Source: Candidatus Nitrospira inopinata (GTDB taxonomy: Bacteria; Nitrospirota; Nitrospiria; Nitrospirales; Nitrospiraceae). From it: a DNA stretch of 32,000 nucleotides. The stretch lies in assembly GCF_001458695.1 (NCBI RefSeq), contig NZ_LN885086.1, positions 540,001 to 572,000 on the forward strand. Direction: 5' to 3'. Below are positions 15,806 to 29,322 of this stretch, piece by piece (position 1 is the first letter of the stretch; each line of letters starts with the position of its first letter). The position numbers were made by a program, and so were the translations under genes. The notes under the pieces were generated by a model. It made no database searches, was not told where the DNA came from, and worked only from the letters and a program-made list of their open reading frames with translations.

Positions 15806-18800
15806 ATGAAACCGCTCAAAATTCTCGCCGTCGCCTGCGTCGCGCTCCTGATCATACTGGCAGGCACCGTAGCCGCGATTCGCTTCTTCTTTCCTGCCGA
15901 CCAAATCCGCAAGCAATTGGAGCGCACCTTGTCGGAGCACCTTCAAGGAACCGTGCGCATCGCCGCTTTGGAATGGGAGCTGCTGCATGGCATCCGCCTC
16001 GGTAACATCGAAATAGAAAGAAACGGCGTACCCCTCGCTCGGTTTGATCGCCTGTCGCTGCGCTACCGACTCCTCCCCCTTCTTCATGGAACAGTGGCCG
16101 TCGACGAGCTGGCGCTGATCCAGGCTGACGTCTTTGTTGATCTCGCTCTTTTCCCCGCCCCATCCCAAGCGGAACCACCCCCGCGCCGCGACGAGCCGGT
16201 CGTCCTTCCGACGCTCCCCCTGTCGGTCAACATCGAATCCATCCGCATTGAACACTCTCATGTCACCATGGTCGGTCATGACGACCTCCGTCTCACCTTG
16301 CGCGACGTCACTCTGACGTCCCGCTTGCACGCCGGCCCGAAGACCGCCGACTTGTCAGGGACTCTGGATATCGCCGACATCGAAGCGTTTGTGAACCAAC
16401 ACCGGTGGCGGCTCCCTCTGCACCTCGCCTTTACCCTCTCTGTCGATTTCCCGATGGAACGACTGGTTCTTGAACGGGTGGAGATCCGGTGCGATCCCGT
16501 AATCAGTCTCGCTGCCACCGGCCGGGTCGATCATCTTGTCTCCACCCCGACTGTGACGTTTTCTGTCCAAGAAAGCCAACTCGACTTGGAGGGGCTTGTG
16601 TCATTGGCACAGCCGTTTCTCCCTCCCCCCCTCGCTGGTGCGCGGCTGGCGGGAACGATCTCTCCCTCGCTTACCATCGCCGGCTCCCAAACCGACAGGG
16701 GATTCGACGGGGCGATCCGGCTCGACATCAACGGCCGTGACATTCGCGGATCGGCGCCCTCGTTTGGACTCTCCCTTGAGTCCACGTCTTTTCAGGTGCG
16801 GACCGGCGAGATTCCCGTTCACGCCAACCGTCCCGGTCCCATCCATGCCGACCTCTCGGTCAACATGACCGGCATCACCGCGGGAGCGGCCTCCGTGCGA
16901 GACTTGGCTTTCGGCCTTCAAGCCGACCGGAGCGAGGCGGGGCGACTCGCCGCCCATGTCACCATGAAGGGTCTGGTCTCCGCCGCACTTGAGCCGGCCG
17001 GGCCACGCCTCTCGGAGCCGCTCACGCTCGACGTCGAAACATCCGGAGACGAAACGGCCTTGTCCTTCTCTTTGACCAGGGTGGAAGCGACCGTCGGCGA
17101 CCTCGTGAGTCTCGTTGCGAACGGCACCGTCGGTCCGCTGGGAGAAGCGGGCAAACAAGCACAGGAACAACGCCCCTTTTCCTTGCGCGCCGCTGTCCGA
17201 AGCGACGCCGGTAAACTGTTTCGAGCCCTACCCCCCTCGCTCCGCCAAGGGTTCGGGCTCACGGCTCATGGCGCCCCCCAAACAGCCTCGCTCAACGTAA
17301 CCGGTTCGCTTGATGCCGACTGGCGTCCGCTGCGGGCCGAGGCCACCCTATCCCTCGACGCGGCGGACCTTCACGCCGTTCACGTGGTTTCGGCAGAACA
17401 GCGGCTTGAAGGGACCTTGGACCGGCTGACCCTTGCGCTGCGGACTGCGTATCACGCCAAGAGCGAATCGCTCAAGGGAACGGTTGACGGATTGATCAGG
17501 CTCTCACACCTGCGGCAAGGAACAACCGCAACCGTTGGAACTGTCTCCGTCACGCTCAACGGCGACATCAACGGCCGCGTAGGATCGGATTTTGCCGTCC
17601 GCCGCCTCACGGCCAGCAACCGCTTGACCTCGGAAATCCGCGATGTCCGATACGAAACTCCCACGATGACCGGGACATTCAACCACCTGACCGCCTCAGC
17701 CAAGGCCCACGGAGACCTGATTGACGGCCCCTACGTGCTGAACGAGGCCCGCCTCACCGTCGGACAGTTGCTGGACGGCAGGGTCTCCGGAACATTCAAT
17801 CCTCGAACCCAACGATTTGCCTTCGACATCGCCGTTCCCTCGCTCAACGTGGCTGAAATTCAACACCACATGACAGGACCTGCCGTGGAGTCCCTTGCAG
17901 CGGTCAAACCGTCAGGACAGCTCTCGATGCGAATCGGCGGCTCAGGGACGATCCCCACGCCGGACGACGTGGCCCAACTCACCATTCCCGTCCAGGCTTC
18001 CGCGCAGGTCGCCCTCCAGCACGTGGGAGGCTCGTTCCAAGGTCATGGGATCACAGGAGCAACCGGCACGATCAGTCTATCCGTCGAACCGCCGGAACAG
18101 CAATCGACCAAGCGCCAGGTGATCACAACCTCGTGGAAGCTCAAAACAGACCGATTGGATCTTGGCGGAGACGCCCCCGTTAAACACCTCGAGAACTTGG
18201 CGCTGGCGCTGGACGGGTCGATCGAATCCTTCGACCGGCTCACCCTTGAGCGATTCGTCCTCAGCGCCGACGGGCTCGACGCCTCGATCGACACGGAATT
18301 GTCGGGGATCAAACGGTTTCTGAACAGAAAGGAAGGGGCGCCTTGGCTCGAGGGGCTGGGTCCTCTCTTCGTCAAATCCAATCTCCAGGCTACGCTCGAT
18401 CTCGACCGGTTCGCGGATGCCGTCCGATCGTTCGGCGTGGCCGGGTCCGGGCGAGCCGGGCTCGCCCTGGTCCTCAATAAAAAAGAGCGGGGGCCGCTCG
18501 ACGTGCGGGTGACGGTGCTGCCTCATCGGTTGTCCATAGCCCAAAGAGAACAGCACGTCGAGGACTTGGACGGTGCCATCGAGCTCCGCAAGGTGCTTCA
18601 GTGGATGTCGCCTTCCGACAAACAGGCTCGTGAAGCCGAGTTTCGACCGACCGGCCTCCTTCCCGACCTTCATCTCACCGCGCCGGCGCGACGGGACATT
18701 CGTATCAGATTGGTCAAGGCCGGGCCCATCGAGGTCCGCAATCTGTCAGGACACCTGTTTCTTGACCAGAATCGCCTGGTCGTTCACAACCTGGCCATGA

Positions 18801-19363
18801 ACCTGCTCGGCGGAGGGCTTGGCGGCGAGGTCACGGGCACGGGCGGCAAGGCCTTTCGCGTGGACCTCCGGATGGAAGCAGCGGGACTGGACACGAATCA
18901 CCTGCTGCCGGCGGGCGAGCAGATCCCCGGCGACAGTCTGATCGATGCCACCGTGACTGGAACCCTCGCCTTCGACGACCAACAGGGCCGCCTCGATTTT
19001 GGCAAGAGCGTATTGGACCTATCGCTCACCAGAATCGGGCGTCACACATTGGACCGATTGCTCCGGTTTCTCGACCCGACCGGCGGCAACCCGTCGATCA
19101 TCGGCGCCCGTTCCGCAGTGAAGCTGGCGAATCCAGCTTCCGTCCGCATCACGATGTCCAAGGGGCTGGTCGCCATCCGCATACGATTTCAGGAGGGACT
19201 GCTCTCCCGTTTTGAGATGGACCGAATTCCAGCGGGCCAGATGAAACAGATCCGCGACCTCACGGCGACCATCCCACAATGGAACGATCTTCGTCGTCTC
19301 ATGGCCCTGTTGGGAGCAGAGCGATATGGAGTGGATCAAGCAGGCGGGTTTGTTTTAGAGTGA
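15806..19363 (+). CDS. AsmA-superfamily, YdbH-like intermembrane (inner-to-outer membrane) bridge protein
   Basis: N-terminal membrane anchor MKPLKILAVACVALLIILAGTVAAI followed by ~1150 aa of repetitive beta-rich sequence. The C-terminal part (..VHNLAMNLLGGGLGGEV..NHLLPAG..SVRITMSKGLVAIRIRFQ) resembles the YdbH C-terminal region as I remember it. A DUF1318/YdbL-like gene follows 4 nt downstream, as in the E. coli ydbH-ynbE-ydbL operon. Confidence 0.7.
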   Translation: MKPLKILAVACVALLIILAGTVAAIRFFFPADQIRKQLERTLSEHLQGTVRIAALEWELLHGIRLGNIEIERNGVPLARFDRLSLRYRLLPLLHGTVAVDELALIQADVFVDLALFPAPSQAEPPPRRDEPVVLPTLPLSVNIESIRIEHSHVTMVGHDDLRLTLRDVTLTSRLHAGPKTADLSGTLDIADIEAFVNQHRWRLPLHLAFTLSVDFPMERLVLERVEIRCDPVISLAATGRVDHLVSTPTVTFSVQESQLDLEGLVSLAQPFLPPPLAGARLAGTISPSLTIAGSQTDRGFDGAIRLDINGRDIRGSAPSFGLSLESTSFQVRTGEIPVHANRPGPIHADLSVNMTGITAGAASVRDLAFGLQADRSEAGRLAAHVTMKGLVSAALEPAGPRLSEPLTLDVETSGDETALSFSLTRVEATVGDLVSLVANGTVGPLGEAGKQAQEQRPFSLRAAVRSDAGKLFRALPPSLRQGFGLTAHGAPQTASLNVTGSLDADWRPLRAEATLSLDAADLHAVHVVSAEQRLEGTLDRLTLALRTAYHAKSESLKGTVDGLIRLSHLRQGTTATVGTVSVTLNGDINGRVGSDFAVRRLTASNRLTSEIRDVRYETPTMTGTFNHLTASAKAHGDLIDGPYVLNEARLTVGQLLDGRVSGTFNPRTQRFAFDIAVPSLNVAEIQHHMTGPAVESLAAVKPSGQLSMRIGGSGTIPTPDDVAQLTIPVQASAQVALQHVGGSFQGHGITGATGTISLSVEPPEQQSTKRQVITTSWKLKTDRLDLGGDAPVKHLENLALALDGSIESFDRLTLERFVLSADGLDASIDTELSGIKRFLNRKEGAPWLEGLGPLFVKSNLQATLDLDRFADAVRSFGVAGSGRAGLALVLNKKERGPLDVRVTVLPHRLSIAQREQHVEDLDGAIELRKVLQWMSPSDKQAREAEFRPTGLLPDLHLTAPARRDIRIRLVKAGPIEVRNLSGHLFLDQNRLVVHNLAMNLLGGGLGGEVTGTGGKAFRVDLRMEAAGLDTNHLLPAGEQIPGDSLIDATVTGTLAFDDQQGRLDFGKSVLDLSLTRIGRHTLDRLLRFLDPTGGNPSIIGARSAVKLANPASVRITMSKGLVAIRIRFQEGLLSRFEMDRIPAGQMKQIRDLTATIPQWNDLRRLMALLGAERYGVDQAGGFVLE

Positions 19364-19367
19364 TGGC

Positions 19368-19985
19368 ATGTTCAGAAAAACGACGGGCTACCAGTCGCCG
19401 GAAACAACCACGTCATTGAGCCGGAACCACGGCCTACGGGTGGCCATCGTGACCTACGGGATCACACTCGCCGGCTGTGGCGGGCCGCTCGTTGGTGTGA
19501 CGATCGTCGATGAAAAGACCGCGCTGGAAAATCAGGTCCTGGGCACCTACCAGGAATTGAATCAGGAAGTGCTGCTCGTCGCCTCGGTCCGTTACATTGA
19601 CCCCTCAGGCAAGTTAGTGCCGCAGCCTCCCATCCCACCGAGCAAAGAAGCGGCCATCCGCGCCATGCAACGGTCGGCTTTCAACAGGGACGACATCGAC
19701 CGGCTCAAGGCGGAAGAGATCCTGGGCGAAAATCTGGAGGGGAGACTGAGTATTCTGGCCCTGGAGAAGGTTTCCGCCGATCGCCAGGCCTTCGTCAAAA
19801 ACCTCGTGGAGGAGGAAAACGCCGACCGAGAGACACTCATGCAGCGGGTCTTGACGACCAACGAGACCTTCACGCCACAGGACCTGCCGAAAATACGACG
19901 TACCTTCGCGGCCCTCAACCGAGACCGAGCCCGTTCCGGAGACTGGATTCAACGGGAAGATGGGCAATGGGTCCGCAAACCCTAA
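19368..19985 (+). CDS. Lipoprotein with a C-terminal DUF1318 (YdbL-like) domain and an extra N-terminal segment
   Basis: Lipobox ITLAGC. C-terminal LKAEEILGENLEGRLSIL...EENADRETLMQRV...RARSGDWIQREDGQWVRKP matches the remembered YdbL pattern (GxVGE..GYL ... R.ALY ... G.W.Q...G.WV.K). Confidence 0.65.
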   Translation: MFRKTTGYQSPETTTSLSRNHGLRVAIVTYGITLAGCGGPLVGVTIVDEKTALENQVLGTYQELNQEVLLVASVRYIDPSGKLVPQPPIPPSKEAAIRAMQRSAFNRDDIDRLKAEEILGENLEGRLSILALEKVSADRQAFVKNLVEEENADRETLMQRVLTTNETFTPQDLPKIRRTFAALNRDRARSGDWIQREDGQWVRKP

Positions 19986-19998
19986 TCTGAGATGGTCT

Positions 19999-22900
19999 AT
20001 GAATCCGGCGGCGAAACGGATTTGGCTCTGGGCCTTGCTGACACCGGCGTTGGCGGCAAGCCCAATCCAAGCAGCCGGTGGGGACGGCAATCCCGAACGG
20101 CTGACGAGCCATCCGGCACTGGAGTACGCCGGCTCGCCTTCGGCTGACGGCCGTTTTCTTGCCTTTGTCTCGGAACAGAACGGCAACGCCGACATCTGGC
20201 TCAAATCCTTGACCGCCGGGATCTCCTCACTGCCCCGCCCCTTGACGACCCATCCGGGGAAAGATACGGCCCCGGCCTTGAACGAGAACGGCTCTTCACT
20301 CCTGTACGTGTCCTATCGATCGGACCCCCGCGGGGACATTTATCTGTTGGATGTCCCGACCGGCAAAGAGACCAGGTTAACCGATGAGCGACATGGCGAT
20401 TTGGCTCCGGCGTGGGGTGGAGACAAGGCCATTTATTTCTTGCGGGAACAGGAGAACTCCGGCGACCGAAGTCTCGTCCGCCTCTCACTCAGAACCGGGG
20501 CCATCGAACCGATCATTGAACGGGTGACATCCTACGCCGTGGGGCCGAATGGCACCATCGTTCATTCAGACGGCCGCCGATTATGGGTTCGCCTTCCTTC
20601 CTCATCGTCCGCTCCGCGCCCCCTCACGAGCGGCGACGTCGTGGACACGTCACCGGCGTTTGTGGACGACACCACGGTCGTGTTCACCCGCTATCAAGAT
20701 GACACGAACGGCGATGGGGTCATTGACGCGGACGATGAATCGTCCATTTATCTTGCAAGCTGGGATAAGGCGACTGGAGCACGAACCAGCCTCTACCGCC
20801 TCACCCCGGGGCAGGAGTTTCATGCCTATCCGGCCGCGAGCGGCTCGTATGTGTATTATTCGGACTTGAAGAGAAAAGACATCTATCGGTTGAACCTGAA
20901 GGAGTTTTTCGCGATCTATGCCGATCTGGCGCGCGCTCGCGAATCCGCCGCGATCCTGCTGGATCGGGGCGAGACCGAAACGGCCCTGCTCATCCTCACT
21001 AACATCTCCGCCAATCTCGCTTTGCAACTGCCGGCGGCGGAACGGGCCTCGTTCGACTTGGCACTGGTGGAGCTGTTGCGCGACGCGCGACGGTACGGAG
21101 CCGCCAAGGGTCTCCTGGCCCGCTCTGCGACGGCCGAGCCGAACGTCAGCGGGAACCACATTGGACCGATCGCCCGGGTGACATTGTCGGTCGTCCGCAT
21201 CGAAGAACGGGCCGCTCTTATGAGCCCGCGCGAACTCACACGGGCTGTCGAGGAGACGAGCAAGGAGCTGTCGGCCCTCGCGCGGCAGAGCGGACAGGAT
21301 GACACCCTTCGAGGAACCGTTTTTCTGGAAATCGGCCGCCTCCGTTTGTTGACCGAAGACCCGCTAAGCGCACTCGACGCCCTGACCCAAGTCGACAGCG
21401 TCGCCAATGACGAACTGCGGGCACGGGCCCTCTTCACCAGGGCCTCCCTGTACCGCCGCCTCGGAGAGCGGGACAAACTCCTGCACGTCCTTCTTGACGT
21501 CATCGCTTCATTCGGCGACCGAAGCTTTTGGGGCCGGAGGGCTGCGGCTCAAGCCGTGGCGATTGCCGACGACCAGGAAGACTTCCGAAAAGCCATCGCA
21601 TCCCTCACGACATTGGCCGAGGCCCATCGAACCCTTCCCTACCTGGCTGCCTCCGCCCTCCTACGCGCGGCGGACCGTGCCTACGAACAGGGCGAAGTGC
21701 TGAGGGCTGTCGAACTGTTGGACCGGGTGATTCGGGAATTCCCTGAACAGACCGCCCCGGTCGCCGACGCCTATCGGAAGAAGGGCATGATCCTCACCTC
21801 CGCCCAGCGGTTTGATGAGGCAGCCCATGCTTATGAAGCGCTGGTGAACTTGACCGGTCACAGTCAGGAGGAGCTGGAACGGGCGAAAACCCTGATGGTG
21901 CTTCAGTTGGTGCGGAGCGCACTTCGAAAACGGGAACTCGGGGAGGTCCGGATCGCCGCGAAGGACCTGCGGCAACTCGTCGAAACCTATCCCGATTCGG
22001 TCGAGGCCCATCGCGGCTACATCGAGACGAAAGTCATGCTCAAGGAATGGGACGAGGTGCGACAGTTCTACGAGAGCCTCGTCAAACAGGCCCCCGACAA
22101 CCCGACCTCTCGCTATGGACTCGGTCTGGTCCTGTCCTACGCCCCTCAGCCTAATTTCAATCTGGTCATCAAGACGATCCAGGAAGCGATCCGGCTCAAT
22201 CCCAAGATCTCTTACTTCCATCAAACGTTGGGCTGGGCCCATGAACAGACCGAACGGCTGGGCACACGCCATGCGCTCGAACAGGCGGAAGCGGAATATC
22301 GCCTCGCTCTGGAGCTGAACGACGGCTTTCTCTTTCCCGAGGTCGAGAACAATCTGCTGTTGAATCTCGGCAACATCTACATGAAGCTCGGCAATTTCAC
22401 GGAGGCCTATCGCCATTACGCGCGCCGCAAGGGCGGAGGCGTCGCCGATCGGGATCGCATGCGCGAACTGCTCTATCACAAGAATTACGGCGAGGCCTGT
22501 TTCAAAACGGGGCGGACGGAGGAATCCACTGTCCAGTACGAACGGGCTCTGGCGCTCGTGCCCGATGATCAGCCTCAGCTTCGCGCCGAGCTGTTGGAAC
22601 GACGGGGGCTGTCGCAACAAGAGGCCGGTTTGCACGCGCAAGCCGTCGAGTCCTTTTCGGAAGCCCTGGCGATCAACAATCGCCTGGGCCTTACGGACAA
22701 TCTGGCCCGCTTGAGCAGAAATGTCGGCGTCAATCTCTACAACCTGGGCGCCACGGTCTCCGACGGATCACGGGTCCCCCTTAAACGCGCCCTCAAAAGT
22801 CTGCTGGAGAGCCTGGAGACCGTCGATCGATTCGGTGTTACACAGAAAGTGGCAGGACCGGGGCTGATTCAGATCCAGGTCGGGCTGGGCGGAAACGCCG

Positions 22901-25900
22901 GCGGAGCCGCCGCCGGCTTTGATCGGCGCGGGGAAGAAAAGCTCCTGTTCAGCTTCATCGCCCGTGCGTACGAAGACTTGTCGGAGCCTCAACCGGCCAA
23001 GGAATACTACGAGAAGAAATTGGCTCTGATCCAGCCGGCCGGCGACTCACCGCAGGCGGTCGCGGCCCGCGCCGAGGAAGCGGTGGTGCTCAACCGACTG
23101 GCCGTGCTGAGCCATGCGCTGGGCCAAACCGACGAGAGCATCCGATACCTGGAGCGATCGCTCGCCCGCACGCGCGAGCTGGGGTTGGACTACGGCACAA
23201 CGGTCAATCTCTATAACCTCTCCCGCCTGGCGGCGGAGCGCCGCATGGCTGGTGAGGCCATCACGCCCAACTTGATCGACATTCTCACCGAGGGAGTCCA
23301 GGCCTTACTCCGAGACTCACAGCCAGACCGGTTGACTCTCTTGCTTCTTTCCAACGTGGCCTTTGTGTTGGCAGCGATGGACGAAGGCACGGTACCGGCA
23401 GGCCAGCCATTGGAGCTGGTCGCCCAAACGATCCACCATGTCGCGCGCGCGCGCCAGGATGCAGTCACATTCCTGAAGCGAGCCCTGGACCTCATTGAGC
23501 AGCACAAGGTCCTCTCAGGCGAAGAAGCCGATCGGCTGAAACTGATCCTGGCTCTGAACCTGTGGGATTTGGCAACCCAGGCAGGCCATGCCCCCACGGT
23601 GGAAAAGCTGGATGGCCTCATCACCGCCCTGGCCGCACAACGGCCGTCTCCCTTCGCCTGGCTGCCTCTGTTTCTGAAGGCGGAACGAACCGCCGATCTG
23701 AACCAGCGAACGGCGTTGCTCACGGAAGCGGCAGGTACGCTGCTTCGTGATCCCTCCCACCTGTTCAGCACGGGTGGGCCCGACACTCTGCCGTTGTTGG
23801 ACGGCCTGGCCTCCCTCACGACCGAGGCCTTGATCAACGGCGGCCGTATCGAGACGGCATTCGAGCTCGGCGAGCAACTCGCCATGCGAAAAACGGCCAT
23901 GCTGCTCGCCAAACGGTTCGGGGTTGATTTTCTTCTCTCCCACATCGGCGACTACGAGACAGAGTTCCGCACTATTGTGGAACAGATGCAGGCTGCTGCA
24001 AGCGAGGGGCAGACTCAGGAACTGAACCGCCTCAACGAGCAATTTCGTGAATTGACCTTCGCTCTGTATGAAGACTATCCCTGGGCCGTGTCGTATCTGC
24101 ACGAATATGAGCCGGCGCCTCATGTCCTGTCCGATGTGCTTCGGCCCGATACCCCCTATCTCAAAGTCACACCTGGCGCTCACGGCCTTCACGTCCTTCT
24201 TCACAGCGGCGAGACGGTCCGCCATGTCCATCTGCCACGCTCTTCAAATCAACCGCCGAGCTTCGATGCGGTGGTATCGCTCCTTGAGAAGGCTTCGGCC
24301 ATCTACCTGTCCTTGCCGACACATCTGCGTAACGTCATCCTCCCATGGCTCCCCAAACATGCCACCCTCGTGGAGGTGGCGTCAGTGTATGATGTGGTGA
24401 ACGCCTACCGGCTTCGAACTCTGTTTGCCTCCAGAGTCGCCATCGCCGGCGACGTGCCTTTCACCATGAAGGAAAGAGAGCCGGACAATACCTTCGTTCG
24501 GCTGACCGGCGACAGGACCCACGACAGGCCATTGTTGGAAAACCGGCATATCGTCGTCACCACGGGCCCCTACCACGACAACGGATTCGTCATCGGCTCC
24601 GACCGTGGTGTCCGTGAGCTGGTGCCCATCACAACCTTGGCAGGCAGACATCGCCATACGGCCATTCTGATGAACCATCGTGTCGATCCGGACACGATGC
24701 GGCTCATCCTGGCGCCGGCTCTGATCCGAGCCGGGTTCCCTCATATCCTGGCCACATCGGGAATGGCAGCAGGCGATCGGTCCGTCGCCGCAGACAAGTG
24801 GACACCGGACCACACACAGGCCTTCGTCATCTCCTATCTCCAATCGGTTCAATCCCAGCGAGTTGATCGCGCCGCGGCCGCTGCGCCGCGGGAAGTAACC
24901 AACCAGAAGGCCACACATCCTTCTTTCCGACTCTACGGCTACATCGGCATGACCCAGGAGGAAAAGGCCTCCTTCGCCGAATCCGAATATCAACGCGCCG
25001 TCTCCGACGCCGTGACAGCCTATCAAGCCAAACAGATGGAGATCGCCCTGCGCCGGGCGGAGGATGCCCTCTCCATCCTTCCCTTGACCAAGGCCGGTCA
25101 TGACTTTCCCAAATTGACCGAGTTGGCCGTGGAGGCGGCCTTCAAGATCGGAAACTACCGCGCGGCGGTAACACACCAGTCTCGGCTGGTCGAACAGCTC
25201 ACCACCACGGGAGATCAGGGGACCTTGGCGGAGGCCCGGTACCGTTTGGGCATCCTGTATTCCCGACTCGAAGAATTCCAACCAGCCCTGGTTCACCTTG
25301 AGGCCGCCATCAACGAGTGGCGGACGCGCGATGAACTGGACCGTTTGGCGGAGGGCGTCGCCACGTTGGGAGTGGTCAAGGAGAACATGGGAGCCTACCC
25401 GGAGGCGCTCGACGCCTTCGGACAGTCGTTTGAGCTGTATCAGGAACTGGGCGAGCCGTTGGACGTGGCGGCCCAGCATCGGCGGATCGGCCGCATCCAC
25501 TATCTCCGTCTGGGACGATATGAGCGGGCGCGGCATCACTTTGCCGCCGCGCTTGAGCAATACCGAAAACAGGGAGCGCGTCGTCTGGAGGCGGAAACCC
25601 TGTACGAGATCGGCCTCACTTATGACAAAATCGGTCTCTACGAGGAAGCGGACCGGCAGTACCTCGAAGGCCGCGCCATCGGCACGGAGTTGCAAGACTC
25701 AGCCCTTCTGGCCACCGGTTCGCTCTATCTGGCCAACACGGCCTGGTATCGAGGCCAGTATCAAGCGGCCTTCGACCATCTCGAAGCAGCGACCAAAGAG
25801 GCGGAACGGGCGCAAGACCCTCGACTCCCGATCATGATCGCGAACACGAGGGCGCTCCTGTACTGGACACTCCACGATCTCGACAAGGCCTTGGTCTATG

Positions 25901-27804
25901 CGGAACAGGCGGTTTCTCTCGCGGAACGGGCCGAGATCAAGGAGGAGATCGCGTCCTCCCATAACAATCTCGGCCTCATGTTGCGCGAGCGGGGCAAGCT
26001 CGACATGGCCTTGGACCATTTCGAACGGGCAAGACAGATCGATGAACAGCAACAGAGCCGATGGGGACTGGGCTATGACCACCGGAACATCGGCATCGCC
26101 CTGATGAAACTGGGACGGCTGGCCGACGCGCGAGCCCACTTCGAATCGGCGGAACGACACAGTGCGGCGATCAACAACATCGACAACTGGGTCAAGGCCC
26201 TGCTGGAACTGGGCAATGTCCATCGCGAGACCCAGGACTATGACACCGCGCTCGACTACTACCGCCGCGCCTATGACCTGTCCAAACGGTATCACATGAA
26301 GGACGTGCTCTGGCGAGCGGCGGCCGGGCAGGGGTCGGTGTTTCGGCTGAGCGGGAAGAAGACCGAAGCGGTCGAGCCCTATCGCGAAGCAGTCGAGATC
26401 GTCGAGAGCATGAGGGCCACCCTGACAGTTGAAGAGTTCCGCAACAGCTTCCAGACCAAGACCCAGGACCTCTATCGCGACCTGGTCATCCTGTTGATCG
26501 AACTGGGGCGCACCGACGAATCGTTCAACTATCTGGAACGGTCTCGATCGCGAAGTTTCATCGACCTTCTGGCCAACCAGAAGCTCAACTTCAAGACTCA
26601 AGCCGATCAACACCTGCTCGATCTGGTCGTGGATCTTCAGACGAAGCTCGACGCTCTCTCAAAAGAACAGGCTTCGTTCGAGCAGCCTCCTGTCGATCTT
26701 GTCACCCGCGTCCGACAAGCCAAGACGGCTTATGAGGAAGCATTGGTTCGCCTCAAACGGGCCAGCCCGGAACTGAGCACGTTCGTGGCGGTCGATCCAC
26801 TGACGATCGAACAGGCTCAGAAACTGCTTGAGCCGGGTGTCGGACTTCTCTCCTACAAGGTCACGGACGACCATGTCTATCTGTGGCTGATCACGGCGTC
26901 GGGAACCAGGTTCTATCGGACTCCGACCGCCGCTGGAGAAATCGATCGATTGGTCAGAACCTATCGGGCCAGGGTCCAGAAAATGGAATCGGTCTCCGAA
27001 GAGCTGAGCCGGCTTTCTCACCTGTTGATCGAGCCGGCTGCTCAAGACTCGGAGGGGTTGCGATATCTCGGTATCATCCCCGACGGGCCGTTGCACTTCC
27101 TCTCGTTCGCGGCCCTGCCTCTCAACACCGGCTCGTTGATCGACGCCTATCCCATCTTCTATTCGCCCTCGGCCTCGGTCTTGAAATTCACCTTCGCCAA
27201 ACGTAAGGACACGAAACACGCCAAAATCCTGGCGATCGGCAATCCGGATCTCGGCAATTACAATTATCAACTGCCGATGGCCGAATTGGAGGCGCGTAGT
27301 ATCCGATGGGAATTCCCGAATCTGGACATTCTCACGGGCGCGACGGCCACCAAGGAATGGTTGATCACCAACGTGTCTCGATACGGAGTCATCCATCTGG
27401 CCACTCACGGGGAATTCGACGACGTCAATCCTTTATTATCGTCGCTCTGGCTGGCCTCACCCAACCCGAACAACCGAAGGCTCACGGTGCGGGAGGTATT
27501 CGGCCTGACGCTGAACGCCGACCTCGTCACCTTGAGCGCCTGCCAGACCGGGCTCGGGCGGTTGGAAGCGGGCGAATTGATCGGTTTGAACCGCGCCTTC
27601 ATGTACGCCGGCACCCACACGTTGGTATCGGCGCTCTGGCGCGTGGACGACTTGGCGACCTCCCTGCTCATGAAACACTTCTATCGCAACTACGCGCGCC
27701 TGGACAAAGCCATGAGCCTTCGGCAGGCTCAATTATTGATCAAAAAGGACTTCCCTCATCCGGCCTATTGGTCGGGGCTGGTATTGGTGGGAGATTACCG
27801 GTAA
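19999..27804 (+). CDS. Giant exported multidomain protein: signal peptide, TolB-like PD40 beta-propeller, TPR array, degenerate CHAT-like module, second TPR array, active C-terminal CHAT (caspase-fold) protease
   Basis: Uninterrupted 7.8-kb ORF. The start is set at ATG 19999 (MNPAAKRIWLWALLTPALAASPIQAAG, a classical signal peptide). The ORF-track ATG 19960 overlaps the previous gene. PD40 repeats (SPSADGRFLAFVSEQNGNADIWL; NENGSSLLYVSYRSDPRGDIYLLDV). Dozens of 34-aa-type A/L/Y/G/R helical repeats. CHAT dyad VIHLATHGEF / LVTLSACQTG. Confidence 0.9.
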   Translation: MNPAAKRIWLWALLTPALAASPIQAAGGDGNPERLTSHPALEYAGSPSADGRFLAFVSEQNGNADIWLKSLTAGISSLPRPLTTHPGKDTAPALNENGSSLLYVSYRSDPRGDIYLLDVPTGKETRLTDERHGDLAPAWGGDKAIYFLREQENSGDRSLVRLSLRTGAIEPIIERVTSYAVGPNGTIVHSDGRRLWVRLPSSSSAPRPLTSGDVVDTSPAFVDDTTVVFTRYQDDTNGDGVIDADDESSIYLASWDKATGARTSLYRLTPGQEFHAYPAASGSYVYYSDLKRKDIYRLNLKEFFAIYADLARARESAAILLDRGETETALLILTNISANLALQLPAAERASFDLALVELLRDARRYGAAKGLLARSATAEPNVSGNHIGPIARVTLSVVRIEERAALMSPRELTRAVEETSKELSALARQSGQDDTLRGTVFLEIGRLRLLTEDPLSALDALTQVDSVANDELRARALFTRASLYRRLGERDKLLHVLLDVIASFGDRSFWGRRAAAQAVAIADDQEDFRKAIASLTTLAEAHRTLPYLAASALLRAADRAYEQGEVLRAVELLDRVIREFPEQTAPVADAYRKKGMILTSAQRFDEAAHAYEALVNLTGHSQEELERAKTLMVLQLVRSALRKRELGEVRIAAKDLRQLVETYPDSVEAHRGYIETKVMLKEWDEVRQFYESLVKQAPDNPTSRYGLGLVLSYAPQPNFNLVIKTIQEAIRLNPKISYFHQTLGWAHEQTERLGTRHALEQAEAEYRLALELNDGFLFPEVENNLLLNLGNIYMKLGNFTEAYRHYARRKGGGVADRDRMRELLYHKNYGEACFKTGRTEESTVQYERALALVPDDQPQLRAELLERRGLSQQEAGLHAQAVESFSEALAINNRLGLTDNLARLSRNVGVNLYNLGATVSDGSRVPLKRALKSLLESLETVDRFGVTQKVAGPGLIQIQVGLGGNAGGAAAGFDRRGEEKLLFSFIARAYEDLSEPQPAKEYYEKKLALIQPAGDSPQAVAARAEEAVVLNRLAVLSHALGQTDESIRYLERSLARTRELGLDYGTTVNLYNLSRLAAERRMAGEAITPNLIDILTEGVQALLRDSQPDRLTLLLLSNVAFVLAAMDEGTVPAGQPLELVAQTIHHVARARQDAVTFLKRALDLIEQHKVLSGEEADRLKLILALNLWDLATQAGHAPTVEKLDGLITALAAQRPSPFAWLPLFLKAERTADLNQRTALLTEAAGTLLRDPSHLFSTGGPDTLPLLDGLASLTTEALINGGRIETAFELGEQLAMRKTAMLLAKRFGVDFLLSHIGDYETEFRTIVEQMQAAASEGQTQELNRLNEQFRELTFALYEDYPWAVSYLHEYEPAPHVLSDVLRPDTPYLKVTPGAHGLHVLLHSGETVRHVHLPRSSNQPPSFDAVVSLLEKASAIYLSLPTHLRNVILPWLPKHATLVEVASVYDVVNAYRLRTLFASRVAIAGDVPFTMKEREPDNTFVRLTGDRTHDRPLLENRHIVVTTGPYHDNGFVIGSDRGVRELVPITTLAGRHRHTAILMNHRVDPDTMRLILAPALIRAGFPHILATSGMAAGDRSVAADKWTPDHTQAFVISYLQSVQSQRVDRAAAAAPREVTNQKATHPSFRLYGYIGMTQEEKASFAESEYQRAVSDAVTAYQAKQMEIALRRAEDALSILPLTKAGHDFPKLTELAVEAAFKIGNYRAAVTHQSRLVEQLTTTGDQGTLAEARYRLGILYSRLEEFQPALVHLEAAINEWRTRDELDRLAEGVATLGVVKENMGAYPEALDAFGQSFELYQELGEPLDVAAQHRRIGRIHYLRLGRYERARHHFAAALEQYRKQGARRLEAETLYEIGLTYDKIGLYEEADRQYLEGRAIGTELQDSALLATGSLYLANTAWYRGQYQAAFDHLEAATKEAERAQDPRLPIMIANTRALLYWTLHDLDKALVYAEQAVSLAERAEIKEEIASSHNNLGLMLRERGKLDMALDHFERARQIDEQQQSRWGLGYDHRNIGIALMKLGRLADARAHFESAERHSAAINNIDNWVKALLELGNVHRETQDYDTALDYYRRAYDLSKRYHMKDVLWRAAAGQGSVFRLSGKKTEAVEPYREAVEIVESMRATLTVEEFRNSFQTKTQDLYRDLVILLIELGRTDESFNYLERSRSRSFIDLLANQKLNFKTQADQHLLDLVVDLQTKLDALSKEQASFEQPPVDLVTRVRQAKTAYEEALVRLKRASPELSTFVAVDPLTIEQAQKLLEPGVGLLSYKVTDDHVYLWLITASGTRFYRTPTAAGEIDRLVRTYRARVQKMESVSEELSRLSHLLIEPAAQDSEGLRYLGIIPDGPLHFLSFAALPLNTGSLIDAYPIFYSPSASVLKFTFAKRKDTKHAKILAIGNPDLGNYNYQLPMAELEARSIRWEFPNLDILTGATATKEWLITNVSRYGVIHLATHGEFDDVNPLLSSLWLASPNPNNRRLTVREVFGLTLNADLVTLSACQTGLGRLEAGELIGLNRAFMYAGTHTLVSALWRVDDLATSLLMKHFYRNYARLDKAMSLRQAQLLIKKDFPHPAYWSGLVLVGDYR
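20101..20900 (+). other. TolB-like PD40 beta-propeller domain of the giant protein
   Basis: Repeated pattern [S/N]xDG..[LI]xFxS.R.G..D[IL][WY]..: DGRFLAFVSEQNGNADIWL, GSSLLYVSYRSDPRGDIYLL, GDKAIYFLRE, GTIVHSDGRRLWV, DDTTVVFTRYQDD..., GSYVYYSDLKRKDIYRL. Confidence 0.7.
26815..27801 (+). other. Catalytically intact CHAT domain of the giant protein
   Basis: GLLSYKVTDDHVYLWLITASG ... YLGIIPDGPLHFLSFAAL ... YSPSASVL ... ILAIGNPD ... HLATHGEF (His codon 27406-27408) ... LSACQTG (Cys codon 27541-27543) ... LNRAFMYAGTHTLVSALWRVDD ... HPAYWSGLVLVGD: the complete ordered CHAT motif series. Confidence 0.88.
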
Positions 27805-27826
27805 AGTACGAAAGGCGAGAGAGGCG

Positions 27827-28351
27827 ATGATGCGTGACCGACGTGTGTGTCTGGCGATGGTGACCTTGGGAACGGCCCTGGCGCTGGTTCCCTCTCTTCT
27901 GTTCGCTCAGACCATGTACGTGAGCCGGGATGAGGTCAAGCTGACAGAGGAAAAATCTCCCACCTCCAAGATCGTGGAGACGCTCCGTCGAGGAGCCCAG
28001 GTTCGGGTCATCGAGAAGAGCGACCGCCATTTCAAAGTGCAAGCCCCCTCCGGAAAAACCGGCTGGGTCTTTAAGTTTACGCTGAGCGATCAACAGGTCG
28101 GCGGAGGAAGCGGCGGGAATCTCCTCTCCGCGGTGACGGGCGACACCCGCATCGCGGCCCGCGAAGCCGGCACCGGCGGCAGCATCAGAGGATTGAAAGA
28201 AACCTCGGAACGGTACGCGACGACCAAACGAGTCGATCAGGCAAGCAAAGACGCAGTGCAGAGGATGGAAGACCGCATCATCCCGCGGGAAGAGCTGCTC
28301 AAGTTCCAGCGGGAAGGATCGGTCGGAGAATTTTCGGGGGAGACGCCATGA
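27827..28351 (+). CDS. Secreted bacterial SH3 (SH3b) domain protein with a Gly-rich linker and a charged helical tail
   Basis: Signal peptide MMRDRRVCLAMVTLGTALALVPSLLFA|Q. SH3b pattern MYVSRDEVKLTEEKSPTSKIVETLRRGAQVRVIEKSDRHFKVQAPSGKTGWVFKFTL. Its stop overlaps the start of the M48 gene (ATGA at 28348-28351). Confidence 0.7.
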   Translation: MMRDRRVCLAMVTLGTALALVPSLLFAQTMYVSRDEVKLTEEKSPTSKIVETLRRGAQVRVIEKSDRHFKVQAPSGKTGWVFKFTLSDQQVGGGSGGNLLSAVTGDTRIAAREAGTGGSIRGLKETSERYATTKRVDQASKDAVQRMEDRIIPREELLKFQREGSVGEFSGETP

Positions 28352-29322
28352 ACGGAACCATGAAGCGGATCATGAAGAGAACATGGATGGTCACGTTTGT
28401 GTCTCTCGCGTTGGTGAGCGGGACCGTGGACCAATCATGGGGGATTTTGGACCAACTGCTCTCGCCTCCCGCCGAAAAGAAACCAAGCCAACCAAAAGGC
28501 CAACCCCAACCCTCCGAGCAAAAGGGTCTGGTTGACGGGATCGGCGGATTGCTGGGAGCCAAGGAGAAAGACATCGGCCTCATCAAGAAGGGACTTAAGG
28601 CCGCCCAGGCCCTTCAGCCGATTGGGCTTGAAGAAGAGATTGCCATCGGCCAAGCCGTGGCCATTGAAGCGTTCGCCCGATTCGGGGGCGAATACAAGGA
28701 CGAAGCGCTCACGACCTATGTCAACTTGGTGGGAAGGACCGTCGCGGAGGTCTCGGATCGGCCAGAACTGACCTACCGGTTCGCGATTTTGAACAGCCGC
28801 GAGCAGAACGCCTTCGCGGCGCCGGGCGGCTATATCTTCGTCACGATCGGCCTGCTCAAGACACTCAAGAACGAGGCCGAGCTGGCCGGCGTGTTGGCGC
28901 ACGAGGTCGCGCACGTCACGCAAAAACACATGCTGAAGACGCTCCAGCGAAGCGCGATCCTGGCCAACGTGTCCGAATTCAGCTTGAGCGCGATGAACAA
29001 GGATCCCAAATTGTTCTCGAATGTCATCGATGCGGCGACCGACATGCTGTTCGAAAAGGGGCTCGACAAGGAGATGGAGTTCGAGGCCGATACCGTTGGA
29101 ATGGAATACACCTACCGAGCCGGCTACCATCCGAACGGTTTGAGAGATTACCTGGCCACGCTCAAGGCACAGGAGGGAACGGCCGACTCGCGATTCTTCT
29201 CAACCCATCCCTCGACCGGAGAACGATTGAGGCGGGCAACGGACACGGCGAGCCGTTACACGGGAGCAAGCAAGTACCCCTATCTGACTGAACGGTTTCG
29301 CTCGCGCATGGGCCCGGCATAG
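28348..29322 (+). CDS. Secreted M48-family zinc metalloprotease (LoiP/BepA-like catalytic domain, no TPR domain)
   Basis: Signal peptide, then NAFAAPGGYIFVTIGLL, the HExxH site LAHEVAHVTQKH, a downstream Glu (EFEAD) and the conserved FSTHPSTGERL tail. Confidence 0.9.
   Translation: MNGTMKRIMKRTWMVTFVSLALVSGTVDQSWGILDQLLSPPAEKKPSQPKGQPQPSEQKGLVDGIGGLLGAKEKDIGLIKKGLKAAQALQPIGLEEEIAIGQAVAIEAFARFGGEYKDEALTTYVNLVGRTVAEVSDRPELTYRFAILNSREQNAFAAPGGYIFVTIGLLKTLKNEAELAGVLAHEVAHVTQKHMLKTLQRSAILANVSEFSLSAMNKDPKLFSNVIDAATDMLFEKGLDKEMEFEADTVGMEYTYRAGYHPNGLRDYLATLKAQEGTADSRFFSTHPSTGERLRRATDTASRYTGASKYPYLTERFRSRMGPA

Follow-up and report, generated by a model that had tools for sequence, protein, structure and literature searches.

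The question raised by this locus is what lies in the middle of a giant protein encoded in a 32,000-nucleotide stretch of Candidatus Nitrospira inopinata (contig NZ_LN885086.1, positions 540,001 to 572,000 of the forward strand), which is referred to here, at its full length, as the window. The open reading frame (ORF) codes for 2614 amino acids and ends in a CHAT protease domain; the genome annotation shows one CHAT per such protein, and about 270 residues are left unexplained. A first-pass annotation had proposed that window positions 24139-24777 (+ strand) encode a second, catalytically dead CHAT-like module, and that the protein is a tandem of two units, each made of a tetratricopeptide repeat (TPR) array and a CHAT domain. 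This segment corresponds to residues 1394-1606 of ORF 19960-27804, with a translation identical to the peptide quoted in that annotation. The analysis presented here argues, with a probability that we put at about 85%, that residues 1394-1665 are an eroded CHAT domain (hereafter pseudo-CHAT) which has lost its catalytic dyad and goes undetected by family hidden Markov models (HMMs), is orthologous to the internal CHAT located between the TPR arrays in this protein family, and has been kept as a non-catalytic module. The elements on which this reading depends are the following:

19960..27804, + strand: giant ORF, 2614 amino acids (ORF list and translation)
24139..24954, + strand: predicted degenerate, catalytically dead CHAT module (pseudo-CHAT), residues 1394-1665, about 272 residues (HHalign, AlphaFold2, Foldseek)
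24673..24678, + strand: N1572-H1573, at or beside the position of the lost catalytic Cys (three-way alignment, strand-end counting in two models, variable clade column)
26845..27801, + strand: predicted live C-terminal CHAT protease module, residues 2296-2614 (Pfam CHAT at E 7.8e-57, residues 2348-2612)

Homology of the internal module to CHAT domains

A search with the full-length protein has revealed 89 homologues, about 80 of which are 2500-2950 residues long and show the same architecture. They belong to Nitrospirota, Nitrospinota, Desulfobacterota and other groups, their named sources being Nitrospira, Nitrospirales, Nitrospina/Nitrospinae, Desulfobulbaceae, Desulfosalsimonadaceae, Desulfuromonadales and metagenome-assembled genomes labelled "Pseudomonadota", and within this set phmmer recovers the internal segment with E-values down to 1e-222. 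When an HMM constructed only from the C-terminal CHAT domains was used, a second full-length CHAT scoring above 200 bits was found in the distant orthologues P0033-P0039, P0072, P0075, P0073 and P0054, at the position equivalent to the internal segment of the window protein. Several orthologous internal modules are also recognised by the Pfam CHAT family (PF12770, with a gathering score of 24 bits), with 113.8 bits in P0072, 65.7 in P0073, 62.2 in P0033, 39.3 in P0036 and 29 in P0038, and the precomputed Pfam order in P0033 is CHAT, TPR, CHAT. The profile of the internal CHAT of the distant orthologues matched the C-terminal CHAT of the family by HHalign with a probability of 100% and an E-value of 1e-43.

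The window protein is connected to these domains by profile comparison. The HMM-HMM alignment that had been proposed as a check on the first-pass annotation was carried out with HHalign, using a profile of the window clade (the window protein plus P0001-P0031, residues 1380-1680), and it gave a match to the internal CHAT of the distant orthologues with a probability of 97.2% and E 3.6e-11 over 217 columns, while ten column-shuffled targets gave E 0.04-0.66 and the reversed target E 0.44. The window sequence alone still matched at 91.4% and E 8.9e-7. In a third clade (P0040-P0071 and others) the internal region is also unrecognisable; its profile joins all three sets, since it matches the internal CHAT (97.8%, E 8e-13), the C-terminal CHAT (89.1%, E 2.3e-6) and the window clade (96.2%, E 2.6e-9). 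The pseudo-CHAT is thus homologous to bona fide CHAT domains by way of intermediates, the Pfam-positive internal domains of its orthologues, and not by direct comparison.

Direct comparisons were negative. No Pfam match was obtained for residues 1394-1606, 1281-1680 or 1380-1680, even at E-values of up to 1-10, and the NCBIfam library gave no match in the internal segment. A BLASTP comparison of the internal and C-terminal regions produced a single out-of-register match (E 0.017), a sequence search of the PDB with the internal segment returned nothing significant, and the clade internal profile matched the C-terminal CHAT profile in HHalign only below significance (E 0.063 to 0.22), the alignment at E 0.063 being in register across its last 59 columns. 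An exhaustive phmmer search with residues 1290-1650 against 1.84 billion representative sequences retrieved 21 proteins, all of them giant orthologues or fragments, and no other CHAT proteins. The families PF26549 and PF26550 were considered as descriptions of the internal module and rejected, both (Tricorn_N and Tricorn_2nd) being N-terminal propeller families.

The hand alignment given with the first-pass annotation has been compared with a three-way profile alignment that runs from the window internal module to the internal module of P0033 (HHalign) and from there to the window C-terminal CHAT (hmmalign). All eight motif blocks were located at their places in both modules, and blocks b-h follow the same order and register in the profile alignment, but block a, a beta-hairpin, is shifted by about 6 residues. 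The proposed segment turned out to be the first 213 residues of the pseudo-CHAT, which extends to about residue 1665 (window 24954), some 60 residues past the end of the segment at 1606. This additional part contains typical C-terminal elements of CHAT domains, two helices and a conserved last strand, FRLYGYIGM (1656-1664).

In P0038, a Nitrospina orthologue (locus L001, 6001-13833), the internal CHAT barely passes Pfam, with its N-terminal half only, and so represents an intermediate stage of erosion. The live-site motif of the same protein reads LSGCQTG in place of LSACQTG, with the Cys kept.

Predicted fold

An AlphaFold2 model of residues 1380-1680 was obtained from an alignment of 34 sequences, with a mean predicted local distance difference test (pLDDT) value of 87.5, a predicted template modelling (pTM) score of 0.88 and 13 strands. 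The Foldseek comparison of this model with the PDB revealed the type III-E CRISPR protease Csx29 as its best match (8eex_B, E 1.6e-5, query-normalised template modelling (TM) score 0.45), followed by SAVED-CHAT (8tl0, E 1.9e-5, TM 0.36-0.37), the separase protease domains 5fby, 5fc2, 5fc3, 9hn5, 9hvy and 7nj0 (E 3e-5 to 7e-4, TM 0.44-0.54), and caspase-4 and procaspase-7 (E 4e-3 to 2e-2, TM 0.26-0.31). The first-pass annotation would have been in difficulty if the segment had shown no CHAT fold or had matched unrelated folds equally well; unrelated folds were confined to E-values above 0.02 and had low probabilities.

As a control, the live CHAT was modelled from residues 2320-2614 (pLDDT 86.8), a construct that is without the first hairpin because the module starts at 2296. 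Its matches to Csx29 and TPR-CHAT chains were found at E 6e-11 to 1e-8 and TM 0.62-0.71, the best of them again being Csx29 (7y9x_B, E 6e-11; TM 0.66-0.71 for Csx29), and it also matched DdvA, separase, gingipain, MALT1 and caspases. Both modules thus match the same structural families, the live control more strongly. Starting at the YLS/YLG strand, the two models show almost identical successions of helices and strands, except that one helix after the fifth strand is missing in the internal copy. On the basis of these models, the pseudo-CHAT is predicted to have a caspase/hemoglobinase fold with CHAT-type topology.

Chain 1N of PDB entry 7n6g (2179 residues, from the ciliary central-pair C1) was matched by both the dead (E 3.4e-4) and the live (E 2.6e-4) modules, which suggests that this chain may contain a CHAT/separase-like domain.

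Catalytic site

The catalytic dyad was sought as a His-Gly pair after strand 3 and a Cys after strand 4. In the live module these are H2483 (27406-27408), within THGEF, and C2528 (27541-27543), within SACQTG; the clade shows hardly any variation in either motif. Wherever an internal copy lent itself to HMM alignment, Pfam-recognisable copies included, both the His and the Cys columns are substituted: the His-Gly pair has become R-T, P-V, K-T, R-F, T-A and the like, and the Cys has become V, A, G, F or T. In the pseudo-CHAT of the window the two catalytic loops have become shorter, with the Cys loop deleted in the profile alignment, and neither His nor Cys stands at the aligned positions; 31 of the 32 clade members have a pseudo-CHAT devoid of any cysteine. 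The earlier proposal of a dead module with a lost His motif is therefore confirmed by these alignments.

The first-pass annotation had also placed an Asn (codon 24673-24675) at the position of the catalytic Cys. HHalign sets this residue, N1572, opposite the Ala that precedes the Cys (position -1), and a residue count that starts where the matching predicted strand ends leads to H1573, so the assignment holds to within one residue (N1572 or H1573). The Asn itself is not conserved, however: when the substitution was followed through the 32 clade members, as the annotation had recommended, the Cys-equivalent column was found to contain N in 14, D in 7, G in 4, H in 3, K in 2, Q in 1 and L in 1. 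The alignments speak for a catalytic site that has simply gone and not for a conserved Cys-to-Asn substitution. By its sequence, only the C-terminal unit (H2483/C2528) appears able to act as a cysteine protease. Since the Pfam-positive internal copies of the distant orthologues are also without the dyad, the internal copy must have been non-catalytic already in the common ancestor of the sampled family.

Tandem units

The helical regions that flank the two CHAT modules are arranged as follows:

20950..23829, + strand: first helical/TPR array (Pfam TPR_6, TPR_11, TPR_17, TPR_19, TPR_7 and YfiO-like matches, residues 506-870)
23830..24138, + strand: linker-1, helical pre-CHAT linker homologous to linker-2 (internal-only profile matching C-terminal linkers in register)
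24955..26493, + strand: second, denser TPR array (Pfam TPR_12, TPR_1, TPR_2, TPR_10 and TPR_MalT; NCBIfam MamA/AfsR-type TPR; residues 1722-2154)
26494..26844, + strand: linker-2, helical pre-CHAT linker of the live unit

Each CHAT module is therefore preceded by its own TPR array, as recognised by Pfam and NCBIfam, with the remainder of the first array being helical and without a Pfam match. A profile constructed from internal segments only (equivalents of residues 1291-1650) matched, in register, the linker helices and first hairpin that precede the C-terminal CHAT in P0038 (8.8e-7), P0051 (8.1e-7) and P0041 (4.8e-5), these being domain E-values, at about 21 bits, that refer to the set of 90 sequences. 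Dozens of weaker matches to C-terminal linkers were all in register, and the HHalign comparison of linker-1 with linker-2 within the clade was in register but weak (E 0.011). Because linker helices and first hairpin are homologous before both modules, the repeat comprises both linker and CHAT. The tandem TPR-CHAT organisation, with an array for each unit, has thus been borne out by the TPR matches, the homologous linkers and the orthologues with CHAT-TPR-CHAT order. The two TPR-linker-CHAT units would have arisen through duplication within the gene or through fusion of two paralogous TPR-CHAT genes, and the sequence data fit either.

Start, N-terminal region and export

Two further elements were located at the N-terminal end of the giant protein:

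19999..20073, + strand: putative Sec-type signal peptide, MNPAAKRIWLWALLTPALAASPIQA (read directly from the sequence)
20089..20949, + strand: PD40/TolB-like (Tricorn_N-type) beta-propeller (Pfam PD40, E 5e-15; NCBIfam TolB propeller, E 3e-13; precomputed PF26549 Tricorn_N in orthologues)

The start codon of the giant ORF is ambiguous. The ATG at 19960 overlaps the upstream DUF1318 gene by 26 nucleotides, and the closest orthologue, P0001 (95% identity, 2601 amino acids), begins at the equivalent of M14 (ATG at 19999). This second ATG, located directly before the signal peptide, is possibly the true start. Similar hydrophobic N-termini or signal peptides are present in most of the orthologues checked. 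The signal peptide implies that the giant protein may be exported to the periplasm, and the live CHAT would then probably be a periplasmic protease acting in an envelope context.

Long ORFs of up to 437 amino acids with TTG or GTG starts, such as 24382-25695 (- strand), lie antisense to the giant gene across 20650-27408, and are taken for shadow ORFs typical of GC-rich coding sequence.

Gene neighborhood

The giant gene is the third of five genes clustered on the + strand at window positions 15806-29322. The other four are the following:

15806-19363, + strand: AsmA/YhdP-like protein of about 1190 amino acids, upstream (Pfam)
19368-19985, + strand: DUF1318 lipoprotein, upstream (Pfam; lipobox)
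27827-28351, + strand: SH3_3 protein, downstream (Pfam)
28348-29322, + strand: M48 metallopeptidase, downstream (Pfam)

Signal or lipobox sequences were found on all five products of this cluster, in which the AsmA/YhdP-like, DUF1318, giant PD40-TPR-CHAT, SH3_3 and M48 genes follow one another. The same order of five genes was found at locus L002 (3733-17341), which carries an orthologue with 47% identity, and at L003 (2750-17052), with P0042 from a much more distant clade; the five-gene cluster is absent from the Nitrospina-type loci L001 and L004. The first two genes resemble the ydbH/ydbL pairing of E. coli. No CRISPR genes were found among the neighboring genes scanned in the window and at the orthologue loci.

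Comparison with known systems

Pseudo-caspases of the cFLIP type have a caspase fold without the catalytic Cys and regulate live caspases. These are separate animal polypeptides that heterodimerise with a caspase, they have no TPR context and they show no detectable sequence relationship to the giant protein.

Csx29, the TPR-CHAT protein of type III-E CRISPR systems (Craspase), resembles the giant protein in having a TPR array followed by a CHAT protease. Csx29 is, however, a cytoplasmic protein of about 750 amino acids with one TPR-CHAT unit under the control of Cas7-11, whereas the giant protein has an entire further TPR-linker-CHAT unit whose site is dead, reaches 2614 amino acids, begins with a PD40 propeller and is predicted from its signal peptide to be exported. 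The protease region of Csx29 has been described as similar to separases, with a pseudo-caspase part (CHAT1) and an active-caspase part (CHAT2) (PMC10028731). The prokaryotic parallel to separase that the first-pass annotation pointed to had thus already been published for Csx29.

Separase itself also combines helical repeats with a downstream caspase-fold protease, which is partnered by a caspase-like domain lacking catalytic activity, and its protease domains (5fby, 5fc2, 5fc3 and 9hn5, TM 0.51-0.54) are among the top structural matches of the dead module. In separase, however, the pseudo-domain directly adjoins the active domain, whereas in the giant protein a complete CHAT unit is dead, and about 630 residues of TPR and linker lie between it and the live one.

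DdvA, an anti-sigma factor of Myxococcus xanthus, is a periplasmic TPR-CHAT protein with a His-Cys dyad, and its CHAT, about 290 residues long, consists of a single 14-stranded sheet (PMC11506125). When the profile of the live module was compared with PDB sequences, DdvA was the best match (8rot_B, E 1.3e-7), and Csx29 was also matched. The CHAT units of DdvA pair by dimerisation of two chains. DdvA differs in being a membrane-anchored homodimer of about 1000 amino acids with a cytoplasmic zinc-binding anti-sigma domain and with the dyad kept in both CHATs, whereas the giant protein carries two units in one chain, one of them dead.

Role of the dead module and rival explanations

The proposal that the internal module is CHAT-like is borne out by profile-profile homology, by the predicted AlphaFold2/Foldseek fold and by its orthologous position, and several points weigh against the reading given above of an eroded CHAT kept as a non-catalytic module. 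The direct evidence from the window protein alone is weak, as there is neither a Pfam match nor a significant alignment to its own C-terminal CHAT. The model depends in part on the homology argument, because 11 of the 34 alignment rows are Pfam-recognisable CHAT domains that may have steered the fold, and the structural similarity is moderate, with TM scores of 0.36-0.54 for the pseudo-CHAT vs 0.62-0.71 for the live control with Csx29 and TPR-CHAT chains. The pseudo-CHAT is also the fastest-evolving region (38% identity vs 74% for the live CHAT), and a merely tolerated relic would show likewise.

The alternative most directly concerned by these points is that the internal module is an evolutionary relic, which now does no more than space the two TPR arrays as a folded element and has no specific part in binding or regulation. 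In the clade, mean pairwise identity and the share of columns at least 90% conserved are 38% and 11% in the pseudo-CHAT, 74% and 58% in the live CHAT and 64% and 40% in TPR array 2; this rapid divergence, the deletion of the catalytic loops and a recognisability that drops stepwise across clades, from 114 Pfam bits to none, are all what a relic would be expected to show. However, the pseudo-CHAT has been found in frame, at the same place and with similar length in about 75 full-length relatives examined from several phyla, its fold is confidently predicted by the model, and 31 of its columns reach at least 90% conservation within the clade, many of them polar, with charged residues or His. Conserved residues include K1402, H1411, H1415, S1451, D1478, R1486, D1522, R1552, H1566, R1590, H1595 and D1636. 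A relic is thus rather unlikely, and the pattern is that of a pseudoenzyme domain on which constraint is relaxed but still real. The strongly conserved His, Asp and Arg residues from H1411 to H1595 (window 24190-24745) all lie away from the canonical catalytic positions, and R1590 and H1595 among them form part of a RAGFPH motif.

If the pseudo-CHAT is such a retained module, the dead unit would most likely have a structural or binding role without catalysis, in positioning or regulating the C-terminal protease or in supplying it with substrates, and it would be retained on account of its fold and of a few conserved residues at its surface rather than for any chemistry.

A more specific arrangement, offered in the first-pass annotation, is that the dead internal CHAT packs on the live C-terminal CHAT as a caspase-like intramolecular pseudo-dimer, as in separase. 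Caspase-fold proteases often need a partner sheet, curved TPR solenoids could bring together modules about 630 residues apart, and DdvA provides an example of paired TPR-CHAT units in the periplasm (PMC11506125). However, by analogy with Csx29, whose protease region alone comprises a pseudo-caspase CHAT1 and an active-caspase CHAT2 as in separase (PMC10028731), one Pfam-defined CHAT unit most likely already holds a pseudo half and an active half: the live unit spans both halves, and only its second half (positions 137-265) matches the active core of Csx29 (588-723), which would leave its first half as the counterpart of CHAT1. The live site would then already have its own partner sheet, and a caspase-style pairing with a distant dead unit would be less necessary. 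The dead unit also evolves about twice as fast as the live one, which is a poor fit with a tight conserved interface. Such a pseudo-dimer is accordingly regarded as improbable.

It is very improbable that the internal module is still an enzyme using non-canonical residues such as a conserved His, Asp or Ser. Candidates for such a chemistry are offered by the conserved H1411, H1415, H1566, H1595, S1451, D1478, D1522 and D1636, but these are off the canonical active-site positions, both catalytic loops are shortened, and no caspase-fold enzyme is known to work without the Cys.

That the segment is an unrelated alpha/beta domain resembling CHAT motifs by chance, as the lack of a Pfam match and of significant direct matches, pairwise or by profile, to the C-terminal CHAT could suggest, is scarcely credible in view of the profile-profile E-value of 3.6e-11 vs 0.04 or worse in shuffled controls, of a position orthologous to Pfam-positive CHAT domains, and of Foldseek matches that at E below 0.02 belong to CHAT, separase and caspase families, with 7n6g_1N, the sole otherwise-named one, also matched by the live control.

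Significance

Pseudo-protease partners are already known from separase, Csx29 and animal caspases. Full-text literature searches brought up neither this giant-protein family nor CHAT domains described as tandem, second, inactive or pseudo, and a complete dead second TPR-CHAT unit in the same chain, conserved from Nitrospirota to Desulfobacterota, was not found in them. The family constitutes a natural erosion series, running from 114 Pfam bits to none, that is useful for calibrating the detection of remote homology and of pseudoenzymes.

For the organism, the locus adds a predicted uncharacterised exported giant cysteine protease located within a conserved envelope gene cluster, beside an AsmA-like protein. 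A speculative and rather improbable extension is that the C-terminal periplasmic CHAT is gated by the dead CHAT, which would be its dedicated sensor or allosteric partner and would act through intramolecular pairing or through binding of a ligand or substrate, the giant protein being the regulated protease of a conserved envelope-maintenance module that comprises the AsmA-like lipid-transport protein, the DUF1318 lipoprotein, the SH3 protein and the M48 metalloprotease. If this were true, the giant protein would be a bacterial single-chain counterpart of the regulation of caspases by pseudo-caspases.

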